50,998 bases of DNA from positions 1-50,998 of IMG/VR virus record IMGVR_UViG_3300037424_003017; one strand, given 5' to 3'. The position numbers and the translations under genes were made by a program. The DNA comes from a virus (lineage: Duplodnaviria > Caudoviricetes). Each line of letters begins with the position of its first letter. Position 1 is the stretch's first letter. The notes under the pieces are model-generated. The model was not told where the DNA came from, did not search any database, and saw nothing but the letters and a program-made list of their open reading frames with translations. Shown here piece after piece: positions 1 through 22,225 of the stretch.

Positions 1-510
1 ATGATGCGGTCGTGGGCGGTTTTTGATTCACCTGTGCAGGATGCACTTCATACTTTGAAATACCGCCATAATGTGGGAATCGGTGATGCTCTGGCAGTGC
101 AAATGAAGGATTTTTTATGCTCGTTGCAGTGGACTGTGGATGTTCTGATCCCTGTTCCACTTGGGAAAAGGCGCTTGAAAGAGAGAGGGTATAATCAAGT
201 TGGGTTGGTTGCGCGAGTGCTGGCTTATGAGGTTGGTTTGGAATATATCCCTCAGGCCTTGTGGAAATCGCGCGAAACGCGTTCGCAGGTGGGTTTGACC
301 ATTTCTCAGCGCTGGGAAAATGTCCATAATGCGTATCAAGCCGCCCCTGAGTCTGTGAGGCGCAAGTCCATCTTGTTAATGGATGATGTGGCAACAACCG
401 GTTCGACAATCCAGTCCTGTGCGAGCGCCCTGTTATCCGCTGGCGCGCGGGAAGTTTATGCAATCACCATTGCGCGTGCACTTTCACATCATGATCTGAC
501 CCGTGTTTGA
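1..510 (+). CDS. comF: ComF family phosphoribosyltransferase-fold protein (probably 5'-truncated by window edge)
   Basis: VPL...RGYNQ motif and ILLMDDVATTGST PRTase motif; sits upstream of hpf, a conserved pairing. Confidence 0.9.
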   Translation: MMRSWAVFDSPVQDALHTLKYRHNVGIGDALAVQMKDFLCSLQWTVDVLIPVPLGKRRLKERGYNQVGLVARVLAYEVGLEYIPQALWKSRETRSQVGLTISQRWENVHNAYQAAPESVRRKSILLMDDVATTGSTIQSCASALLSAGAREVYAITIARALSHHDLTRV

Positions 511-555
511 CAACTGTCTGTTTGGACGGTTGATAACCTTTTCAGGAGGTAGTAT

Positions 556-1122
556 ATGGCGAACAAAGTTGTAGCACTGGCTCGTAATATGCGGCTCACC
601 GATAATACACGCGAGTACGTGGAGAAGAAAGCGGCCAAACTGGAGCGATACCTTCAGGAAATTGACGAAATTCACGTTGAGTTGTCCCACGTAAAGGCGG
701 CTCGTAACGCAAATGATCGTCAGGTGGCGCAGATCACGGTACGGGGCAGGGGATTTATCCTGCGCACTGAGGAGCGTTCGGACGATTTGCACACCGCCTT
801 TGATGCCGCCTTCGACAAGATGCAAAGGCAGGTTGATCGTTACAAGGGCAAACATCATCATGGGCGTGGTGACGGGCGCTCTGCCGCTGAGGTGATCGAA
901 GAGGATGTGCCCGTTGACGAGACGGGTGAATTGCTCCCGTTGATCGCCAAGCGAAAGAAGTTTATTGTGTTGCCCATGAATGAAGATGAGGCTGTTGAAC
1001 AGATGCGTCTGCTCGGGCATGACAATTTCTTTGTCTTCTTCAATGCTGAGAAAAACTCCATTCAGGTTTTGTATCGGCGTCGCAATGGATCATATGGCTT
1101 AATCGAACCTGTGGTTGGCTGA
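556..1122 (+). CDS. hpf: ribosome hibernation promoting factor (long HPF)
   Basis: S30AE-type N-domain (YVEKKAAKLERY, DLHTAFDAAFDKMQRQ) plus C-domain (PMNEDEAVEQMRLLGHDNFFVF, VLYRRRNGSYGLI); GGAGG RBS. Confidence 0.95.
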   Translation: MANKVVALARNMRLTDNTREYVEKKAAKLERYLQEIDEIHVELSHVKAARNANDRQVAQITVRGRGFILRTEERSDDLHTAFDAAFDKMQRQVDRYKGKHHHGRGDGRSAAEVIEEDVPVDETGELLPLIAKRKKFIVLPMNEDEAVEQMRLLGHDNFFVFFNAEKNSIQVLYRRRNGSYGLIEPVVG

Positions 1123-1155
1123 TGCACTGAATTGTGGTTTTATCAAGGAGCGAAA

Positions 1156-1779
1156 ATGGAAATTGATGATGACAACGATGATCTGGAAGGTGTGTCAACG
1201 AATGTGGATTTGGATGCCACAAAAAATGTCATCCTTGAGTTGATAAAAGCAGTAGGGGAGGACCCTGAACGGGAGGGTCTAAAGAACACGCCGCATCGCG
1301 TATCCCGCATGTATGTGGAACTGTTGAGTGGCTATACTGCCGACCCCACAAAGATCATCAATGGCGCGTTGTTCAACATCAGTTACGATGAAATGGTGCT
1401 CGTGCGTGATATCGAGTTTTATAGTCTGTGCGAGCATCATATGTTGCCCTTTATTGGCCGTGCGCATATTGCATATATTCCTGCAGGGAAGGTAATCGGG
1501 CTGTCCAAAATTCCTCGCATTGTTGATATGTATGCGCGCAGGTTGCAGGTGCAGGAACGGATGACGCGCCAGATCGCAGATTTTCTTCAGCAGACCCTCA
1601 AGCCCCAGGGGGTTGCAGTTGTTGTGGAGGCAATGCATTTGTGCTCCATGATGCGCGGTGTAAAAAAGCATGATGCGCGCATGACGACATCTGCGATGCA
1701 TGGAGCGTTCCGCGCGAATTTGGCGACGCGGCAGGAATTTTTGGATAATATCTCTCGACCACGGGTTGGGATCAACTGA
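1156..1779 (+). CDS. folE: GTP cyclohydrolase I
   Basis: [45 protein letters not shown] motifs; AAGGAG RBS before ATG 1156. Confidence 0.97.
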
Positions 1780-1780
1780 T

Positions 1781-3265
1781 TCAAGTACGCCAGTGGATGG
1801 TGACGGTGTGCTCGGGGGAGACGGTGATCTTTTCACAGAGCGCCGTCAGGAGACGATGGACGACGACGGGGTCGTCTTCCTGCACCCATTCGTGGAAGTG
1901 GGTCAGATCGGGGAATTGATCGGTGATCTCGGCACGGAGTTGTGCGGCGTTCTCCCCTTTTTCGAGTTCGAGGCGCAGGGTTTCGAGCTGGTTCTCCAGC
2001 TCGGTGAGTTTGGCTTTGGCTTCGAGGGGTGTATAGACTCCGCCTTCGAAGCCTTCCTGTACGCGCTTGCGGCGTTTCTGAATGTCCTCCATTGCCGACT
2101 GATAATGACGTTGGGAGTCTTCCTGTTTGTCTTCGAGGGGTTGTGCCTTGTACTTTTGCAGTTGTTCTGCGAGATGGCGCGCCACCAGGTCGACGCCTTC
2201 CGGATAGGGAATGATGACGTGAGCGGGTCCGGCTTCGCAACTAAGGACCTTGCGACGTTGGTACTCGGCATGTCCATGGGACCGGCGGTGGAGTTTGCGT
2301 CCGCAGACGGAGCAGACCAGGAGCCCGGACAGTGGGAAGCGAGCGGCAAAGTGGCGATTCGTTGTATAGCGGCGTTCCATTTCCCGGACGAGGGAACGAT
2401 GCGTGGCTTCATCCCACAGCGCTTTATGTGTGCCTTTGCCGACCGTCCATTTGGCGTGCGGTAGTTCGACCTGGCGTTTCTGGTTCTTGCGGCGGAGGTC
2501 ACGGACCTGCTGAGATTTGTTGAGGGTGACCAACCCGGCATAGTATGGATTGGTGAGGATGTATTTGATGGTGGAGAGATCCCAGTGTTCGCCGCCGTTG
2601 GGTGGAAGGATTCCGGACTGATCAGCGTGCTGGGTGATGGATGTGAGGGAGCGTCCCTGTAGGAACAGGTTTTTGCATTGGATGATGAGGGCGGCTTTTT
2701 GCGGCTCGAGCTCGGGCGGTTGTTTCTTTCCGATCCATCTATACCCGAAGGGGACGCGCAAGGGTGTGAGTCCGCGGGCAATGCGAGCGGGCATTCCGAC
2801 TTTGTATTTGCGCCGCAGGTCGTTGATGCGGAAATTCTGGGTGATGCGATGAACATCACGCATGATGGATTCATTCTCGGATGTGTAGGGGTCGAAGTGA
2901 TCTGGGTCCTGCGGTTCCGCCGGCTGACTGACGGAGTAGAGTTGTTTGCCGTAGAAGCGCAGGGAGTTGGCCACCATATCGGCGAGATCTCCCAGCCTGT
3001 CGTATGAATAGATGACGAGAACGTCGAAGAGATTGTTGCGGGCATCTTCGAGCATTTGTTTGAGTTGGGGGATGTCGTTCTCGGCATCATTAAGGTTCAC
3101 GTAAAAGGAGCGTGACGCACCAGGGACGATGTAGGGTCCTGATGTCTCCTGCCAGTTATGCGCAAGCGCGGCGCGGCGTGCGTTCTCTTCCTGTTGTTGG
3201 AGGGAGACGCGATCGGGGGTGGCTTGTTGTTGGGTCGAGACTGCCGACCAGATGGAGAAGCGCAT
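1781..3265 (-). CDS. large serine recombinase (prophage integrase)
   Basis: N-terminal WSAVS..QQ...SL..Q catalytic region, YDRLG, PFGY, ILTNPYYAG recombinase domain, LSGLLVCSVCG zinc ribbon, coiled coil. Confidence 0.93.
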   Translation of the reverse strand: MRFSIWSAVSTQQQATPDRVSLQQQEENARRAALAHNWQETSGPYIVPGASRSFYVNLNDAENDIPQLKQMLEDARNNLFDVLVIYSYDRLGDLADMVANSLRFYGKQLYSVSQPAEPQDPDHFDPYTSENESIMRDVHRITQNFRINDLRRKYKVGMPARIARGLTPLRVPFGYRWIGKKQPPELEPQKAALIIQCKNLFLQGRSLTSITQHADQSGILPPNGGEHWDLSTIKYILTNPYYAGLVTLNKSQQVRDLRRKNQKRQVELPHAKWTVGKGTHKALWDEATHRSLVREMERRYTTNRHFAARFPLSGLLVCSVCGRKLHRRSHGHAEYQRRKVLSCEAGPAHVIIPYPEGVDLVARHLAEQLQKYKAQPLEDKQEDSQRHYQSAMEDIQKRRKRVQEGFEGGVYTPLEAKAKLTELENQLETLRLELEKGENAAQLRAEITDQFPDLTHFHEWVQEDDPVVVHRLLTALCEKITVSPEHTVTIHWRT

Positions 3266-14695: not shown

Positions 14696-15484
14696 ATGAA
14701 AAAACAAAATGCAAATAGGTTTCATTTTGACTTCGGGATCTTCCTGCTGATCACAGGGGCGCTGTCGAATGTGACCCTATGGGTCGGCGCGTTCGTAGCG
14801 ACCGAGGCTCAAGGATCCGTTAGTGTGTGGGTACGGAATGCCTTTCTGCCGGTTCTGGGCGGGATCTCGGGTCTGGCGATGGGTATTACGGTGGCGGCTG
14901 GGTTGGTGTACGTGATCGCCAAACTCAACAACATGAAGCCGACCAACGAACGAAAGGTGCGCGGCAAGGATGAATACAAGTCCACGCCTAACATCCGCTT
15001 TTATGGTGCATGGAGTGCGATCGTGATGTTGCTGGTCATCTCGCCGGCATTGCTGGCTCCCTATGTGTATATGACGATCTCAGGCGCTGGGAGCCTGTTT
15101 CAGGTCCTGGGCGAGATGTGGGCAGGGGTGTGGTCGGTTGGCAGGATCGTAGCCGCTGACCTTGCGATGGGTGCGGTCGCATTGGTGCATGGAGTGCATT
15201 TTGGTGCAAGCGCACCCGGCGGACAGACTGCGAGCACTGCGAAGGGTGCGACGGAGTCCCTTGCACATCCGACTCGCACTCCGAAGAGTGCAAAGGGAAC
15301 TGCGAGCACTGCGACGAATGTGCGACTGTGCGATGTGGATGGGTGCGAGATCTCGTACCGCTGGCCGCAGGGCAAGGGAGCGCATTACAAGAAGCATCAT
15401 CCTGAACTGGTGATACAGAAAGGCATTCCTGCCGGTGTATCGTTGCCGCTCAAGCAAAACACGAATGTTGAGAAGAAGTTGTGA
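14696..15484 (+). CDS. multi-pass membrane protein with C-terminal C2H2-like finger
   Basis: About 4 TM helices, low-complexity linker, CDVDGC..HYKKHH. Confidence 0.7.
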   Translation: MKKQNANRFHFDFGIFLLITGALSNVTLWVGAFVATEAQGSVSVWVRNAFLPVLGGISGLAMGITVAAGLVYVIAKLNNMKPTNERKVRGKDEYKSTPNIRFYGAWSAIVMLLVISPALLAPYVYMTISGAGSLFQVLGEMWAGVWSVGRIVAADLAMGAVALVHGVHFGASAPGGQTASTAKGATESLAHPTRTPKSAKGTASTATNVRLCDVDGCEISYRWPQGKGAHYKKHHPELVIQKGIPAGVSLPLKQNTNVEKKL

Positions 15485-15687
15485 GCGATCTTCGACCGTG
15501 GTTTGTGGAAGACATGGCGAGAGTGATCAAGAGTGTAGTGTTCACGGCGCTCGCCAGCAATAACGAGGATTACCGACGCGGTTTTCTGGCTTGTGCAACC
15601 GCCATTTGCATGGCTTTTGGGATCGATATAAAAGATGTCATTGCCGAATTTGAAGTATTTTACCAGGAGAAACAGAGTAAGCCATGA
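15481..15687 (+). CDS. hypothetical protein
   Basis: GTGA-coupled ORF. Confidence 0.55.
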   Translation: MSDLRPWFVEDMARVIKSVVFTALASNNEDYRRGFLACATAICMAFGIDIKDVIAEFEVFYQEKQSKP

Positions 15688-15823
15688 AGAAGAATTGGAG
15701 AGATAAGGTCATGTGTGTATTCGGATTTTTGTTCTTTGGCGTGACACTTACGTGGGTTGTGTGGTTCGTGTTGAACCATCCGCCGTTCTAAGAGAGACGT
15801 TTTGAAAGGATGAAGATGGTGAC

Positions 15824-16810
15824 ATGAAATTAATGGCTGTGGTTCGAGATGCGTTACGAACGAAGGGATATGCCTATAAAACCGAGAAGGCGTATTTGAA
15901 TTGGATCCGCAGATATGTACGCTTTCATTTACCGAGTCATCCGCGGGACGTGGAAACCGAGGGTGTAAAGAAATTTTTAACACACCTGGCAGTTGATGGC
16001 AATGTGAGCGGCGGAACGCAGAACCAGGCATTGGCGGCGTTATTGTTTTTGTATCGGGTTCTTGAAGTCGAACTTGGTGACATCGAGATGGTGCGTGCAA
16101 AGAAGGACAGGCGTTTGCCAACTGTTCTCTCTGTCAATGAAGTGATGCAAGTGTTGGAGAATATGACTGGCGTGTATCGCATCATGGCTGAGATCATGTA
16201 TGGAGGCGGTCTGCGGTTGAATGAATGTTTGAAGTTGAGGGTGAAGGATGTGGATATGTTCAATCGCCGAATCACATTGAGAGATACGAAGAGTAACTGT
16301 GATCGGGTAACGTGCCTGCCATCATCCGTTATTCCGGCACTGCAATTACATTTAGTGAAAGTTCAGGCTCAACATACAGAAGACCTGGCAAGTGGTTATG
16401 GCGAGGTCGAACTGCCGTTTGCGCTTGAGAAGAAATACCCGCGCGCACCGTTCGAGTGGGGATGGCAGTACGTTTTTCCTGCGGCACAGTTTTCGACTGA
16501 TCCACGAAGCGGTCATGTGAGACGGCATCATATTTTTGAGACGAGTGTCCAGCGGGCAGTGAAAGAGGCGGCACGGAAGGCGAAGATCGCAAAGCCTGTG
16601 GGTCCACACACGCTGCGCCATTGTTTTGCAACTCATCTTTTGGAAGGAGGCACAGATATTCGAACAATACAAGACTTGCTTGGTCATAAAGATTTGAAAA
16701 CGACGATGGTTTATACACATGTCGTTGGGGGCTCGGCAGTACGCTCGCCGTTGGATCGGAATTTGGAACTGCGTGAGGGGATTATGCGGCGCGTAGTTGT
16801 AGAATCATGA
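15824..16810 (+). CDS. intI: integron integrase (tyrosine recombinase)
   Basis: [33 protein letters not shown], IntI-specific insert [42 protein letters not shown], catalytic VYTHV; intact. Confidence 0.95.
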
Positions 16811-16874
16811 GTTGTGCGTCGCTCGGGGAGCCTGAGTACACGCCCCCGCTCGCTGGACGCACAACGGGGCGCGA
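16811..16874 (+). repeat. type I cassette leader (64-bp exact direct repeat)
   Basis: Identical to 18413-18476. Confidence 0.9.
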
Positions 16875-16914
16875 AATGCAATTCGCAATCGTGCTATTAG
16901 AAAGGATGTCAATT

Positions 16915-17232
16915 ATGAACGATGAAGCCTTGCAAGAAGCATCAAAGAAACTACGAAAACTGAGGCTTACTGATGTAGGCGGGCGCAAAGAGCATCCTGC
17001 CGACACTGTCAAGTCTGTTTTCGAGAGGGGATTAGGTGGCATGTACGATGACGACGCAATCACATATGTACTTCGGTGGGGTATCAAGTATTACCGCGAC
17101 GCACAACTGCGAATTGGAGCAGACGATGCGGGACATACTTGCCCCTCCTGTAAGGGGCTTCGTATTGTGCGAAACAGTGACGGATTGGGTAGTCAAGATT
17201 GTCCCGCCTGCAAGGGAACGGGGCAAGCATGA
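16915..17232 (+). CDS. cassette 1 protein with C-terminal CxxCxG zinc finger
   Basis: GAAAGGA RBS; CPSCKG..CPACKGTG encoded inside attC1. Confidence 0.75.
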   Translation: MNDEALQEASKKLRKLRLTDVGGRKEHPADTVKSVFERGLGGMYDDDAITYVLRWGIKYYRDAQLRIGADDAGHTCPSCKGLRIVRNSDGLGSQDCPACKGTGQA

Positions 17233-17269
17233 ACGCCCCGCTCGCTGTTCATTTCGCGCCCCGTTGGGC
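17101..17269 (+). other. attC-like site 1
   Basis: GCACAAC-TGCGAATT-GGAGCAG ... CTGTTC-ATTTCGCG-CCCC-GTTGGGC. Confidence 0.75.
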
Positions 17270-17302
17270 GGCTCCCTTGCCAACCAGCAGAAAGGTAAAA
17301 CG

Positions 17303-17554
17303 ATGAACGAGAAGAAAATTATTGAAACACTAGAAATGATTGTTCAAGATATGGCGGATGATGCAAAGAATTTTGATGGTAAGCCATTCACTGGTCGCAC
17401 AGTTGCAGAGTATTTCGGTAATCAGGGTGCGGCAATTGCGGCTCTTGCTAACATTGTCAAATCTTTGGTTGAAAGCCGCCCAACATTGCGTGCAGTTGAC
17501 CCGCCTTCGGCTCTGGTGGGCGGTGGTAATTATGAAAATTCGGCGGGCAACTAA
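17303..17554 (+). CDS. cassette 2 hypothetical protein
   Basis: GAAAGG RBS; reads through attC2 and stops in the L' box. Confidence 0.75.
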   Translation: MNEKKIIETLEMIVQDMADDAKNFDGKPFTGRTVAEYFGNQGAAIAALANIVKSLVESRPTLRAVDPPSALVGGGNYENSAGN

Positions 17555-17569
17555 CGTCAGCCGTTGCGA
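17478..17569 (+). other. attC site 2 (canonical geometry)
   Basis: GCCCAAC-ATT-GCGTGCAGTTG ... CAACTAACGT-CAGCC-GTTGCGA. Confidence 0.85.
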
Positions 17570-17648
17570 CGACACTGCGCTCCCCCCAACGAACGGGGGG
17601 GCTTGGTCGCCGCAATGGGCGCGGCGTAAAACGTAGAGTTGCGGCGCT
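17563..17648 (+). repeat. type II cassette leader
   Basis: GAC(A/G)CTGCGCTCCCCC..GGGGGGCTTGGTC core; related copies at 17973-18056, 18854-18941 and 19830-19914. Confidence 0.88.
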
Positions 17649-17682
17649 TCATGAAAAATAAGTATTTTGATAGGAGAATAAA

Positions 17683-17913
17683 ATGGCTAGACGTGACACA
17701 AATATAATCTTGAGGTGTACCTTGGAAGATAAAAGGATGTTGAAAGAACTTTGCAAACGATTGGATATGAATCAATCACAAATTATTCGTAAACTTATCA
17801 CTGGCTCGTTTAGAATTTTCAAAGAGGAAGACGCTTTGCTAGACACGAGCGCCGCAACTCTACGTGCACCCGACCAGAGCGGGAGAAAACGTAGAAATGG
17901 CAATAAAAAGTAA
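17683..17913 (+). CDS. cassette 3 ribbon-helix-helix-like protein
   Basis: IILRCTLEDKRMLKELCKRLDMNQSQIIRKLI; AGGAG RBS. Confidence 0.7.
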   Translation: MARRDTNIILRCTLEDKRMLKELCKRLDMNQSQIIRKLITGSFRIFKEEDALLDTSAATLRAPDQSGRKRRNGNKK

Positions 17914-17979
17914 AGTTGAATTCATAGAATTGGTGCGTGGCATTCCCGCTCTGGACGGGCGACGCCGCGCCCATTGGGC
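17852..17979 (+). other. attC-like site 3
   Basis: CCGCAAC-TCT-ACGTGCACCCG-ACCAGAGCGGGA ... TCCCGCTCTGG-ACGGGCGACG..CCC-ATTGGGC. Confidence 0.75.
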
Positions 17980-18081
17980 TGACGCTGCGCTCCCCCAAAG
18001 TGCGGGGGGCTTGGTCAGCCCAATGGGGCGAGCGTAGGAACGCAGAGCCGGGCTGCCCCTGAAAGGAAAAAGGAGTTGCTA

Positions 18082-18402
18082 ATGAACGTATTGACTAATT
18101 CTGAAAAATATCAAGCAATGAGAGACGCGCTGAATGAGTACTATTGGGATAATAGTATCTCGCCAGAAGCAACGGCGGCAATGCTCAATACATTTGCGGC
18201 TGAGGTGTCTCGACTGGCTAAATTCATTCAGGATAATTGGTCTGCCCCTGACCCGCGCAGCCCAACTCTGCGTGCACCCGTCCTATCCGAGCAGAAATGC
18301 CCTTATTGCAATGGCAGGAAAAAAGTATATGCGTGGTTCAAATGGATACGATGTGCTGTATGCAACGGGACGGGCATTTCAACCCGCTCGGATGGCGGGT
18401 GA
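18082..18402 (+). CDS. cassette 4 protein with C-terminal CxxCxG zinc finger
   Basis: AGGAG RBS; CPYCNG..CAVCNGTG inside attC4. Confidence 0.75.
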   Translation: MNVLTNSEKYQAMRDALNEYYWDNSISPEATAAMLNTFAAEVSRLAKFIQDNWSAPDPRSPTLRAPVLSEQKCPYCNGRKKVYAWFKWIRCAVCNGTGISTRSDGG

Positions 18403-18419
18403 CGCTCGCCCCGTTGTGC
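18260..18419 (+). other. attC-like site 4
   Basis: GCCCAAC-TCT-GCGTGCACCCG ... CGGGTGACGC-TCGCCCC-GTTGTGC. Confidence 0.8.
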
Positions 18420-18514
18420 GTCGCTCGGGGAGCCTGAGTACACGCCCCCGCTCGCTGGACGCACAACGGGGCGCGAGATACATTTCTCAGTTGGCTCCGA
18501 AAGGATATAAAAGT

Positions 18515-18823
18515 ATGGCAAAAACTCTAGTCAATGAAACTGTGTTGGAAGGCGTAATATCAGCACGTATAAACGATGATGATTCGCTAACTATTATGGT
18601 TCGCTACATAGGTACAGATGAGCAGTGGTCATGGGAAGATATTATTGCTTTATCACCGGAAGGTGTGAAAGTTTTACGTGACTTGCTCGACCGCGACGCA
18701 CAACTGCGAAATGAAGCGGACGATGTGGGGCAGACATGCCCCTTGTGTGGGGGAAGGCGGGTTATCCTAAGTGGAGACACGAAGATATTGTGTCCTGCCT
18801 GCACAGTGACGGGGCATGTCTAA
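18515..18823 (+). CDS. cassette 5 protein with C-terminal zinc finger
   Basis: GAAAGGA RBS; CPLCGG..CPACTVTG inside attC5. Confidence 0.75.
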   Translation: MAKTLVNETVLEGVISARINDDDSLTIMVRYIGTDEQWSWEDIIALSPEGVKVLRDLLDRDAQLRNEADDVGQTCPLCGGRRVILSGDTKILCPACTVTGHV

Positions 18824-18860
18824 ACGCCCCACTCGCCGCTTATCTCGCGCCCCGTTCGTC
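18698..18860 (+). other. attC-like site 5
   Basis: GCACAAC-TGCGAAATGAAGCGG ... CCGCTTATCTCGCG-CCCC-GTTCGTC; same family as site 1. Confidence 0.75.
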
Positions 18861-18956
18861 GGACGCTGCGCTCCCCCCAACGAACGGGGGGGCTTGGTCC
18901 GCCCAATGGGGCGAGCGTAGGAACGCAGAGCCGGGCTTCGCTGAAAGGAAAAAAGA

Positions 18957-19202
18957 ATGATAACAAAAAGTGATGCACGTAAAATTCTTGAAGAAACATG
19001 CGGTGAATACATTGCCGTTGATGACGAGTTGGCAGCAAGGGTGGCTGATGGGTTCAATGCAATCCTCGACTCGCGCAGCCCAACTCTGCGTGAAGCTGCT
19101 CCGCCCATTCGTGAAGCTGTGTGCGATTGCTTGGCACTTCACAATGCGCAAGAAGTTGCAATCAATCACTGTTTTGCGTGCGGGAAACCGCTTCACTCAT
19201 GA
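18957..19202 (+). CDS. cassette 6 protein with C-terminal Cys cluster
   Basis: GAAAGGA RBS; CDC..CFACG inside attC6. Confidence 0.72.
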   Translation: MITKSDARKILEETCGEYIAVDDELAARVADGFNAILDSRSPTLREAAPPIREAVCDCLALHNAQEVAINHCFACGKPLHS

Positions 19203-19235
19203 ACGGGCGGGCAGCTTACGCTCGCCCCATTCGGC
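19078..19235 (+). other. attC-like site 6
   Basis: GCCCAAC-TCT-GCGTGAAGCTGC-TCCGCCC ... GGGCGG-GCAGCTTACGC-TCGCCCC-ATTCGGC. Confidence 0.78.
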
Positions 19236-19261
19236 GGCTTCATCGCTCGAAAGGTTGAATT

Positions 19262-19627
19262 ATGACAGATAGAATCCCCGCACAATGTTTTCACCCTGGC
19301 GAATATATCAGGGATGAAATGGAAGCTCGTAAATGGGATGTAGCCGAGCTAGCAAAGCGAATGAGTGTACATGATATGCCCGTTGAAATTGCGGTGTCAC
19401 TCATCGAGTGCGAACAAGACATTACGCCTAGTATTGCTTTTGGTTTGCGCCGCGCGTTTGGAACGTCCGCCGATTTGTGGATGAATTTGCAGAAGGCTTT
19501 TGATGTATGGCAAGAAAGCCGCCCAACACTGCTTGCAGCGGACGTCTTTGAGTCGGAGCCAAAATGCTACTGCCCTGCCGATGGTGTTTACCCTGGTTGT
19601 CCTGTTCATGGCAACCGCCGCCGCTAA
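19262..19627 (+). CDS. higA: cassette 7 HigA-family antitoxin-like HTH protein with Cys/His tail
   Basis: HPGEYIRDEM, ITPSIAFGLRRAFGTSADLWMNLQ; tail CYCP..GCPVHG inside attC7. Confidence 0.8.
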   Translation: MTDRIPAQCFHPGEYIRDEMEARKWDVAELAKRMSVHDMPVEIAVSLIECEQDITPSIAFGLRRAFGTSADLWMNLQKAFDVWQESRPTLLAADVFESEPKCYCPADGVYPGCPVHGNRRR

Positions 19628-19636
19628 AGCTTGCCG
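19521..19636 (+). other. attC site 7, R' box lost
   Basis: GCCCAAC-ACT-GCTTGCAGCGG ... CCGCTAAAGC-TTGCC followed by GAG instead of GTT. Confidence 0.65.
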
Positions 19637-19836
19637 AGCAGAATTCGGCTTTTACTTATGGCGCTGTGCCGTATGCACCAATAAAAGATTTGCTTGGTTA
19701 TCTTGAACTTGATTTGGAGAACCGTGAGCTAGACGACAAGGATCATTGGGAAGAAGTGTACCAAGTTATTAATGAATGGCTTCACACGCCGAATTCTAAC
19801 CGCTCGGCAGGCGGGTGATCCCGCGCCCCGTTCGTC
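19632..19836 (+). pseudogene. unit 8: cassette remnant (inner stem, coding loop and right arm of an attC4-type site)
   Basis: TGCCGAGCAGAATTCGGC pairs with GCCGAATTCT-AACC-GCTCGGCA; frame ends NRSAGG* like cassette 4 TRSDGG*; no own RBS or start seen. Confidence 0.6.
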
Positions 19837-19930
19837 GGACGCTGCGCTCCCCCAAACTACGGGGGGCTTGGTCCGACGAATGGGCGAGCGTAGGAACGCA
19901 GAGTTGTCTGCGCTCAATGAAAGGAAAATC

Positions 19931-20173
19931 ATGTCGCCTGAAGAACTTGAAGAATTGCAATATCACATTGCCTGGGCTTTGAAACATGCGCAACGTGCGG
20001 TGGAGGCTGCAAAGAAAGCTGATGAGTTTCTTGACAAGCTCGCCACGCAGCGCAGCCCAACTCTGCGTACACCCGTCCATGAGCGGGAGTGGGTTTGCTT
20101 AAAATGTACAACAACAAACATGCTTGATGTTCCTATCTGTCAGGCGTGTGGGGCGTCCCGCTCAGGCGGGTGA
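19931..20173 (+). CDS. cassette 9 protein with RanBP2-type zinc finger
   Basis: GAAAGGA RBS; WVCLKCTTTNMLDVPICQAC fits W-x-C-x2-C-x3-N-x6-C-x2-C, inside attC9. Confidence 0.78.
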   Translation: MSPEELEELQYHIAWALKHAQRAVEAAKKADEFLDKLATQRSPTLRTPVHEREWVCLKCTTTNMLDVPICQACGASRSGG

Positions 20174-20190
20174 CGCTTGCCCCATTAGGA
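20055..20190 (+). other. attC-like site 9
   Basis: GCCCAAC-TCT-GCGTACACCCG..TGAGCGGGA ... TCCCGCTCA-GGCGGGTGACGC-TTGCCCC-ATTAGGA. Confidence 0.78.
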
Positions 20191-20199
20191 TTCTTTCTT

Positions 20200-20400
20200 A
20201 TGGACAAAATACTCTCTGGTATCGAAGATGTACCTGCAATCGCAGATGATAAATGTGGCGTTTGCGGAACGCAATTGACGAAAGAAAACTTTAGTGATTG
20301 GTTTATCTTTGTCAAAAATGATGGTCAAATGTATCAAGTGCCTTGTTGTAACCCTTGCCTAGCAGAAAGAGGTAAGGGTGGAGAAAAGGTTTATGAATAA
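20200..20400 (+). CDS. cassette 10a small Cys-rich protein
   Basis: CGVCG..CCNPC; AGGA before ATG. Confidence 0.6.
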   Translation: MDKILSGIEDVPAIADDKCGVCGTQLTKENFSDWFIFVKNDGQMYQVPCCNPCLAERGKGGEKVYE

Positions 20401-20575
20401 CGACACACATGTTTACCCATTGAACGACTTGCAAGAACATGTCCTCGAAGGCGTTGAGTGTCCGTGCAATCCTACAGTAGAAGTAATTGGAGCAGACCTG
20501 TTGATAATCCATAATGCTTTTGACAACAGGGAAGTGGTCGAAGAGGCTATTGCCATAATGAATGGCGAAGCCTAA
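20393..20575 (+). CDS. cassette 10b small protein
   Basis: HVYP..D..EH....CPCNP..IHNAFD; stop TAA lies in the GCCTAAC R'' box. Confidence 0.7.
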   Translation: MNNDTHVYPLNDLQEHVLEGVECPCNPTVEVIGADLLIIHNAFDNREVVEEAIAIMNGEA

Positions 20576-20602
20576 CACTTGCCGTTGAGAAGGAGATCGC
20601 AA

Positions 20603-21322
20603 ATGACATCACACGGTATTTTGATGAGCGATGAAATGGTACGGCAATATCTCGCCGGCAGGAAGATCATGACCAGGCGCACTCGTGGGTTGGATGTTAT
20701 CAATAAGAGCCCTAATCACTGGACATGTCGTGGGCTATCTTCGTCTGGTGATCATTTCGTTTTCGACAGTCTGCCTTTGCCTGATCTCCCACGGCAAAAG
20801 ATCAAGCCTCCCTATGGGTATATCGGTGACGAATTATGGTTCAAAGAGTGTTTTCAGGTGATTTTCCCCTTACCTGTTGTATCTACTGACGGCAGGGTTC
20901 ACATGCAGGAGTGGAGTGGAAGGCTTCCAAAAACTAAACACGTGAATTTCACTACGGTCTATCGAGCCGATGATGCTAAACGATTCTCTGGCTGGAGACC
21001 CTCGATATTTATGAATAAATGGGCTAGTCGTATAGTCACTAGGGTACGCAGTATTCGTGTGGAGCGATTGCAGGACATCGTCCATCACTCCTATGAAGCA
21101 AAACAAGAGGGCTTCGATTACCTGGGAACTTTCGATGACGTTCAATGGCGCCCTGGTGTGGATACCGGCAAATGTTACTTCATCGATTATTGGGACTCGT
21201 TGAATGCAAAGCGCGGCATGAGTTGGGAGTTCAATCCGTGGGTGTGGGTGTATGAGTTTCCGCAGTATTCTCCCTCACCCCAGCCCTCTCCCGCTGGGAG
21301 AGGGGGAGAGGTGGATGGTTGA
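20603..21322 (+). CDS. ASCH/PUA-like phage protein
   Basis: GRKIMTRR, GDELWFKE, WRPSIFM.KWASRI, NPWVWVYEF motifs. Confidence 0.7.
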   Translation: MTSHGILMSDEMVRQYLAGRKIMTRRTRGLDVINKSPNHWTCRGLSSSGDHFVFDSLPLPDLPRQKIKPPYGYIGDELWFKECFQVIFPLPVVSTDGRVHMQEWSGRLPKTKHVNFTTVYRADDAKRFSGWRPSIFMNKWASRIVTRVRSIRVERLQDIVHHSYEAKQEGFDYLGTFDDVQWRPGVDTGKCYFIDYWDSLNAKRGMSWEFNPWVWVYEFPQYSPSPQPSPAGRGGEVDG

Positions 21323-21938
21323 TATGAAATACGACGAGGCGAAGTTGTTGTCCATAAAGTTTGGAGCTTTGATGTCGCAGGCGTGTGAGCGCCTAGAGAT
21401 CGTTGGCAGTGTGAAGCGTGCAGATAAGCTAGAAGTGCATGATATTGAGTTTCTGATGATCGCCGATGATCGCCGACCGCGCCCGGAGTTTGGTCAGAAG
21501 GTGATCCATAAGACGATGCTGGATAAGGTTTTGTTTGAATTGTGTGATACCGGTTTACTGAAACGTGTTATGGGCGGAGACAAGCTTAAGAAGTATGAGA
21601 TCATCGAAGCGAGAGAGACGGAGGTCAACCCGTTCTGTCTGGAGATCTACGTCGTGCGCCCGTGGACGTGGGGCATCCAGAATGTGATCCGCACGGGTCC
21701 TGCGGCGTTCAGTCACTGCTTTGTGACCAATAAGGGTTCGGTGTGCTACGACAAGGAATCAGGTCATTTCTATTACGGCCTGTTGCCGGATGACTGCCAG
21801 TACATCCGAGGGGAGACGCGCATCGAGCGCAACGGGCTGACACTGAACCTGCCCGAGGAAGCCGACGCCCTGGCAGTGATCGGCAAAGGTTGGATCGAGC
21901 CGCAGGATCGCCGGCGGTTCGCAATCAGAAAAGGATAA
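21315..21938 (+). CDS. DNA polymerase X-like nucleotidyltransferase (core only)
   Basis: IVGSVKR, HDIEFL, IRTGPAAFS, EEADAL..IG..WIEPQDR. Confidence 0.78.
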   Translation: MVDMKYDEAKLLSIKFGALMSQACERLEIVGSVKRADKLEVHDIEFLMIADDRRPRPEFGQKVIHKTMLDKVLFELCDTGLLKRVMGGDKLKKYEIIEARETEVNPFCLEIYVVRPWTWGIQNVIRTGPAAFSHCFVTNKGSVCYDKESGHFYYGLLPDDCQYIRGETRIERNGLTLNLPEEADALAVIGKGWIEPQDRRRFAIRKG

Positions 21939-21982
21939 TGGTTATGAACATGAAAACAGCGACCATGATGGAGAATTGAATC

Positions 21983-22225
21983 ATGAATATGACAGATACG
22001 ACAGTGGGTGTTGGGTCGTGGTTGAAGCGCGGCAGAAGTCATCCCATCGAGCATTTCATCACTGCCGACGATGGTGACGGGATGTTGATCACTGCCTGCG
22101 GAAAGCGGATGCGCCGCGGTCCAGCAGTGTTAGGAACAAGTGGGGAGGACAGCGCCTATCGCTGTGTGACCTGTACCGATGCGGCGAGGGTATCGGCATT
22201 ACTAGAGATCAAACAAGGAGAATGA
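21983..22225 (+). CDS. hypothetical protein (His/Cys motif)
   Basis: H..TACG..CVTC; GGAG RBS. Confidence 0.55.
   Translation: MNMTDTTVGVGSWLKRGRSHPIEHFITADDGDGMLITACGKRMRRGPAVLGTSGEDSAYRCVTCTDAARVSALLEIKQGE

Follow-up and report, generated by a model that had tools for sequence, protein, structure and literature searches.

What is a reverse-complemented copy of an integron cassette's own recombination site doing at the opposite end of the same cassette? The question is raised by the provirus record IMGVR_UViG_3300037424_003017 (Duplodnaviria; Caudoviricetes), whose 50,998 nucleotides (nt) form the window analysed here. In this record a gene for an IntI integron integrase is followed, right after its stop codon and in the same orientation, by an array of small cassettes, six of which begin with a leader carrying such an inverted copy of their own attC site. 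The array is a genuine integron, judging from its sequence: an attI-like site lies beside intI with a variable first cassette, the core junctions are precise, and cassette content differs between relatives; IntI is predicted to excise and insert the cassettes. The CATGA-GTT junction that opens the array also precedes other first cassettes in the related phage contigs L001, L020, L022, L023, L031, L039, L041 and L044.

The leader, about 75 nt long, consists of the cassette start, a G/C hairpin, the complement of the start, and the reverse complements of the right and then the left arm of the cassette's own attC. Along the top strand come c (the cassette start), the G/C hairpin, c' (its complement), AAY, a, a spacer of 1-5 nt, b, the ribosome-binding site (RBS), the gene, B, an extrahelical base, the upper stem and loop, A, and R at the boundary with TT, where A and B are the right and left arms of the cassette's own attC, a is the reverse complement of A, and b is that of B including the core and tail. 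The first-pass annotation had described a loop-less mini-copy of attC; the loop is indeed missing, but so is all of the stem beyond the first extrahelical base, at which the copy ends. All six leaders that it listed (16811, 17563, 17973, 18413, 18854 and 19830) are present, and the five arm matches that it quoted are exact (15/15, 18/18, 16/16, 16/16 and 15/15). Perfect inverted repeats (at least 15 nt, 100-600 nt apart) form 5 clusters in the array region, against a mean of 0.002 and a maximum of 1 in 500 dinucleotide-type resamplings, with 2 clusters in the remaining ~47.5 kb of the window. The claim that each leader tracks its own right arm holds less strictly: leader 17973 agrees with its own arm at only 11/12 positions yet with that of cassette 18854 at 12/12, because both have the same leader type, and leader 19830 matches its own arm poorly (3 edits over 11 nt). 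The array also has, besides the six leader cassettes, leaderless or decayed cassettes (17264; ~19230-19830).

Pattern scans of viral and metagenome contigs yielded 54 distinct leaders, to which 7 were added by eye and from which 2 exact duplicates were dropped, giving 59; nine of these end with their contig, leaving 50. A long cognate attC was found for 42 of the 50, two keep one cognate arm (L021 and L114), and six are decoupled or truncated (two in L030, and one each in L025, L026, L035 and L037). In two further, two-gene cassettes of L080 a whole gene stands between c and c' while the a-b module is still matched, which brings the total to 44 complete cassettes out of 52 leaders with sufficient sequence. 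The arrangement in which a whole gene separates the start of the cassette from its complement, with a matched copy module after it, was seen on the minus strand of L080 (3849 and 4488) and in L254 (1170-1794). The own attC sites were placed by structure finders blind to a and b, with outputs chosen by eye and six sites placed by hand; the set was ascertained by the leader pattern, and counts taken from it are not phylogenetically independent. Chance accounts for 5 of the 45 metagenome matches and for most matches of several further scans, and a scan of a genome collection for the hairpin gave 7 matches and no leaders. Among ~36 full-length IntI loci leaders were seen in four contigs; ordinary cassettes therefore dominate the clade.

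Covariation between leader and attC, by which the first-pass annotation proposed to check its observation, holds across the 44 cassettes. Over 11 nt, Y plus a agrees perfectly with the reverse complement of A plus R in 37/44 and with at most one edit in 41/44, and the copy of the full right arm is perfect in 34/44, whereas 1/44 match the arm of the upstream neighbour and 5% of non-cognate pairs agree. When the 25 haplotypes were permuted 20000 times, the observed match was never reached; the perfect haplotypes number 18 and are linked by at least 25 mirrored steps. The base Y agrees with the cassette's final base in 42/44 and shows no association with the base upstream. In 30/44 the arm portion of b, the left-arm copy, is perfect (0/5000 permutations). 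The copied core reads GTT in just 10 cassettes, with at least 10 other triplets, and is dead in the other 34, while R'' is AAC in 44/44. The start and its complement, c and c', pair perfectly in no more than 27/44. Scanning with just the a-b module found four new leaders: two complete ones match at 13/13 and have new hairpin variants, one lies on a contig that ends early and one has a truncated attC. Different arm types accompany the same gene family, and different genes share an arm type; leader and attC therefore stay matched while the cargo changes. The position of mismatched cassettes within arrays was uninformative. These leaders are a recurrent, real cassette architecture, and the sequences give strong evidence of cassette-specific pairing.

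The attC sites of the leader cassettes are themselves unusual, a property that was absent from the first-pass account. Sites of at least 125 nt occur in 43/44 leader cassettes and in 0/77 ordinary ones (relatedness ignored), the leader-type sites spanning 117-217 nt from AAC to the R' core. The first extrahelical base and the 6-bp stem are in place in 43/44, and half-pairs of the L box are formed in 228 of 233, with 15 wobbles on the bottom strand against none on the top; a bottom-strand L-box wobble is equivalent to a top-strand wobble in the a-b mini-hairpin. Other features depart from the canonical site: the first extrahelical base is C rather than G on the bottom strand (43/44), and the right arm is 2-3 nt longer than that of ordinary neighbours, outside the canonical spacer of 5-6 nt per arm. 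Among 35 variants of the leader hairpin, most of them found with a pattern holding part of the motif, GCGNAGC lies on the bottom strand in 28 and on the top strand in none; this motif is described as an unusually stable DNA mini-hairpin (PMC13037366).

In folding models with DNA parameters, bottom-strand circles adopted the leader-paired form in 42/42 cassettes, and the attC form then cost a median of 21 kcal/mol, a figure that fell to 3 on removal of the leader; ordinary circles pay 6 kcal/mol for the attC form (n=52). In the linear form, also absent from the first account, the cost was 9-27 kcal/mol with the own leader against 0-8 without (12 cassettes), and foreign leaders (two for each of these cassettes) stayed near the baseline unless their copy was identical or close. 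These are equilibrium energies for DNA alone, with SSB (a protein that binds single-stranded DNA) and IntI outside the model. Cassette 1 in its natural context takes the leader-paired fold both as DNA and as RNA. The predicted fold is a three-way junction, in which the leader pairs with the right arm and the cassette start, the leader and left arm close the gene loop, and the upper attC stem is kept; c'-AAY-a would pair the first and last bases of the cassette side by side, and the b/B hybrid would stack on the upper stem almost in canonical geometry, a possible reason for the dead copied core. The idea that long attC sites cannot fold alone is not supported, as a leaderless long attC folds as well as an ordinary one in the model. 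An alternative pairing of leader with attC is strongly implied, and the anti-attC folding switch, one of the options first offered for these leaders, gains support, the alternative fold dominating in both circular and linear forms.

Cassette lengths, which the first account also left aside, are quantised. The spacing between the copied core and R'' falls into groups around 150, 215 and 288 nt (period 68, R 0.84, 27 gene families), a periodicity equalled in 0/3000 jittered sets; in four held-out leaders it is 152, 204, 158 and 144 by hand count. Ordinary cassettes have a weaker period of 78 (p 0.0003, 59 families) and, in L001-L187, attC lengths near 80 and 115 nt (0/3000). Gene loops of the ordinary cassettes of the clade cluster near 155, 225 and 300 nt. 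Leaders of single-gene cassettes are 69-88 nt long. The footprint of E. coli SSB is given as 35 or 65 nt (PMC5737091); the gene-loop steps of ~68 nt are close to it, and SSB may be the link.

We favour, at a probability of about 0.45, the reading that the leader is a cassette-specific lock, predicted to keep the attC hairpin unfolded and so to damp recombination. Once the bottom strand is single-stranded, the leader would pair with both lower arms of its own attC, for which the enlarged unpaired spacer may serve as a toehold; the attC hairpin would remain the substrate of IntI, used only if it folds first or if SSB covers the ~70-nt leader. The copied core would have been inactivated because the hybrid of leader and left arm would otherwise be cut by IntI. 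The leader itself probably began as a cassette that was re-inserted, inverted, in front of its own copy, after which the palindromic parts were lost by deletion. The lock is favoured since the canonical site is kept (R'' in 44/44, extrahelical geometry in 43/44) and since a hairpin with a paired spacer and no extrahelical bases is reported to recombine very poorly with attI1 (PMC2727003). Several points weigh against it. An identical 422-nt cassette stands behind three different upstream sites, and a lock of 20 kcal/mol should hinder such mobility. Long attC loops reportedly extrude poorly from duplex DNA (PMC8946536), so that the unlocking step would rest on kinetics. The right arm is relaxed, with the second extrahelical T in 15/44 leader-type against 71/74 ordinary sites, the G of R' in 22/44 against 70/74, and a right spacer of 10-13 nt against mostly 9. 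Unlocked cassettes with long attC sites, expected to spread, number 0/77 among the ordinary cassettes, and a lock with so large a margin does not obviously need a perfect match. Mobility, poor extrusion, the relaxed right arm and the absence of unlocked long sites all favour a different reading of the same pairing.

On that reading, possible but doubtful, the leader is not a brake but a splint, a working partner strand that pre-forms the circle junction by pairing the first and last bases of the cassette; IntI would then resolve a four-way junction with the upstream attC, the leader duplex acting as a double-stranded site like attI or attG. The register is exact at the crossover, where the last base follows the leader (42/44) and not R'', long attC sites occur only with a leader, and mobility would be retained, the dominant fold being the functional one. 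On the minus strand of L049 (890-985) a collapsed, symmetric leader forms a perfect hairpin to which cassettes are joined at both ends and on both strands, head to head; IntI is also described as using degenerate GWT genomic sites (10.1101/2022.09.11.507474), and some attC sites as recombining well without extrahelical bases (PMC5027507). Yet the poor reaction of paired-spacer hairpins with attI1 counts here as a difficulty, R'' is invariant, a leaderless long attC folds well in the model, and inspection of the splint duplex showed no L-box motif at 5 bp from the core. Reactions between duplex sites are reported to be 3-4 logs rarer (PMC4792948), yet ~12/44 leader cassettes follow attI-like sites (by reading; a crude classifier gave 16), so that a splint struggles with insertion at attI. 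One-step excision from single strands is established (PMC12614218). The leader duplex as a mimic of attI was likewise weakened, as attI sites have AAT-N5-GTT and the duplex does not. A broader version, equally speculative, sees the cassettes as self-folding single-stranded DNA devices, in which the splint lines up the two ends at the crossover and serves IntI as partner strand in place of the attC left arm, loops are sized in SSB units, and the gene loop and the coding attC loop are swapped as separate modules.

The other explanations give the leader another function or little function at all. A copying scar, which we consider unlikely, would be an inverted duplicate re-homogenised in the folded circle by templated repair or nick translation. 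The layout is what a cassette inserted inverted (on the top strand) ahead of its own copy would leave once the palindromic parts were deleted, several spacers look on inspection like the deletion junction of the upper stem, and copying would explain the drift of the right arm from the attC consensus; it leaves the dead core unexplained, however, since the copied core is specifically the part not homogenised, and the hairpin is common by descent across arm types. Mismatches in the stem of start and complement persist through several insertions of the same cassette, for which reason generic repair of a circle hairpin was rejected. The group IIC-attC retro-copy model places a reverse transcriptase or intron nearby, and the ~65% complete record has no match to a reverse transcriptase (PF00078). 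An mRNA element, pairing the 5' and 3' ends of each cassette's transcript next to the RBS in the service of processing, stability or control of translation, seems improbable. RNA takes the same nested structure in the folding model, the RBS directly follows the copy and ORFs (open reading frames) read through attC, but the left arm lies inside coding sequence, top-strand G-U pairs in the leader/arm duplexes show no excess (2 vs 2), and the selectively dead core, the exact crossover register, the bottom-strand mini-hairpin and the ~68-nt steps point to DNA. That leaders are independent empty mini-cassettes which merely precede related ones, moving on their own as the first-pass annotation said they should if it was wrong, is largely refuted and very improbable: such behaviour is limited to a minority (6/52 decoupled or truncated, one of them with an ordinary cassette exactly at the copied core, a single case at L030 2984), while a long cognate attC accompanies 44/52 and one cognate arm survives in 2 others, the match is with the downstream and not the upstream site, and the core needed for release is dead in 34/44. 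Scarcely credible, finally, is inversion of the genes by IntI at the inverted copies (phase variation), another of the options first offered. A perfect inverted repeat does span the would-be overlap region, second-strand exchange between duplex sites is described for IntI (PMC4792948), and L049 has its one head-to-head junction; but the upper attC stem, which would come right after the leader if the gene were inverted, does so in none of 49 leaders, and a strand change appeared in 0/15 joints shown (of 19, from contigs of three sequencing runs, the joints being short and ambiguous). In L049 and L080 collapsed leaders have the spacer joined to A (single cases).

Coordinates of the integrase, the attI-like site and the cassettes are collected in Table 1.

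Table 1. The integron in the window: integrase gene, attI-like site and successive cassettes
Feature	Position	Strand	Evidence and landmarks
IntI integron integrase, 328 aa	15824..16810	+	TIGR02249, 416 bits against a cut-off of 265; Pfam PF00589 and PF13495
attI-like site, end of intI	16796..16813	+	Sequence; crossover probably between 16811 and 16812
Leader cassette 1	16812..17263	+	Leader 16811-~16895; AAC 16863-16865; right-arm copy from 16866; dead core ATC 16888; ORF ~16915-17232, reads into attC; R'' 17105; R' 17263
Ordinary leaderless cassette	17264..17563	+	ORF 17303-17554; short attC
Leader cassette 2	17564..17973	+	AAT 17614-17616; intact core GTT 17638; ribbon-helix-helix ORF 17683-17913; R'' 17856; R' 17973
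Leader cassette 3	17974..18413	+	AAT 18022-18024; dead core GCC 18047; ORF ~18082-18402, Cys-rich tail; R'' 18264; R' 18413
Leader cassette 4	18414..18854	+	AAC 18465-18467; core GTT 18490; ORF 18518-18823; R'' 18702; R' 18854
Leader cassette 5	18855..19229	+	AAT 18905-18907; dead core GCC 18930; ORF 18957-19202; R'' 19082; R' 19229
Leaderless HigA-like cassette, then decayed leader-type cassette with attC left arm deleted	19230..19830	+	ORF 19262-19627, TIGR02607 above cut-off
Leader cassette 6, poor match to own right arm	19831..20184	+	AAT 19879-19881; core GTT 19903; R'' 20059; R' 20184
ORF of leader cassette 6	19931-20173	+	RanBP-type zinc ribbon

ORFs in the window (16915-20173) and in L019, L023, L028, L041, L042, L058 and L080 run through R'' into the attC loop, which often codes a Cys-rich tail of the zinc-ribbon type. 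N-terminal modules and attC-coded C-terminal modules occur in differing combinations, which suggests domain shuffling. The cassette for a HigA-family antitoxin has no toxin seen adjoining it, and the right end of its attC is degenerate. The last unit (20185-20580), with two small ORFs, ends in GCCTAAC followed by a truncated attC and is likely the decayed end of the array.

The record, ~65% complete, also encodes a large serine recombinase, a terminase, a tape measure protein and a lysin; at its left border (1-3265) host genes (phosphoribosyltransferase, HPF and GTP cyclohydrolase I) are followed by the large serine recombinase. Related integrases number in thousands. In Chloroflexota genomes a related IntI was found in 28 of 401, and the 20 loci examined are 48-58% identical; no leader-type arrays were seen by eye within 700 nt downstream of intI, the side inspected, and this relatedness is only a hint at the host of the window phage. 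No SSB gene was found in the ~65% complete record, and no tandem repeats; the sequencing runs listed include none of RNA; an Rfam scan of 15000-22000 gave 2 matches, at chance level, a promoter scan gave 9 against 5.4 +/- 2.0 expected with none inside the six leaders, and terminators showed no excess. A REP-like G/C-rich palindrome at 21267-21317 is common to many unrelated contigs. The arrays in L042, L046, L057, L151 and L152 begin at AAT-N5-GTT-like sites with no preceding attC and, in the stretches read, no intI directly upstream. The attI-like sequence after intI in L019 (2970-2995) recurs inside the array of L030 (2960-2990).

Like the class 1 attCaadA7 and Vibrio cholerae repeat (VCR) cassettes, the present system has an IntI-type integrase, an attI-like site, tandem cassettes cut between G and TT, and attC hairpins of the R''/L''/L'/R' type with two extrahelical bases 6 bp apart and a bottom-strand folding bias. 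Unlike them, each leader cassette bears a complementary, cognate copy of the arms of its attC. The right spacer is also longer, half of the sites have ATT at R', the bottom strand has C as its first extrahelical base, ORFs continue through attC, and intI points the same way as the array; the leader-type attC sites, at ~128-228 nt, also differ from the 55-141 nt given for known sites (PMC7370490). Integrons and clusters of attC sites lacking integrases (CALINs) have likewise been described inside phage genomes (Qi et al. 2023, PMC9892861), the available part of that paper mentioning neither a leader nor an inverted copy of attC. The brakes known to act against loss of cassettes (attC sites of low folding probability, leading-strand orientation and toxin-antitoxin cassettes) also tune attC folding or retention, but as described they are intrinsic to the site or array (PMC5371416, PMC11023631), whereas here a separate, sequence-matched element 150-290 nt away gives the competing fold. 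For a splint the nearest analogy is provided by the ends of IS200/IS605, where a single-stranded element also registers its cut site by its own bases beside a hairpin, although with an HUH (Y1) transposase and a 4-nt guide (PMC5027513) instead of a tyrosine recombinase and a complement of 25-35 nt. ORF-less empty cassettes are likewise short units bounded by GTT-like cores with an attC-like hairpin, but the leader is an inverted unit with a truncated stem and usually a dead core, and it matches the attC of the gene after it. Searches of the open-access literature on integrons turned up neither a cognate inverted copy of attC nor a periodicity of lengths, and the cognate-leader architecture is apparently undescribed so far.

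In the usual view an integron cassette is a gene with one passive attC hairpin. Here a whole class of cassettes has a second, matched element that would decide whether attC folds, which would mean either that the cassette governs how mobile it is or that IntI acts on another kind of substrate. This bears on the form of the excised circle, on why cassette genes are short and on how cassettes arise; the gene-loop steps of ~68 nt, together with attC steps of ~35 nt, suggest that a single-stranded stage shapes cassette size. Should the doubtful picture of self-folding devices be true, such arrays would represent a natural, integron-based shuffling of protein domains and a window on cassette construction.

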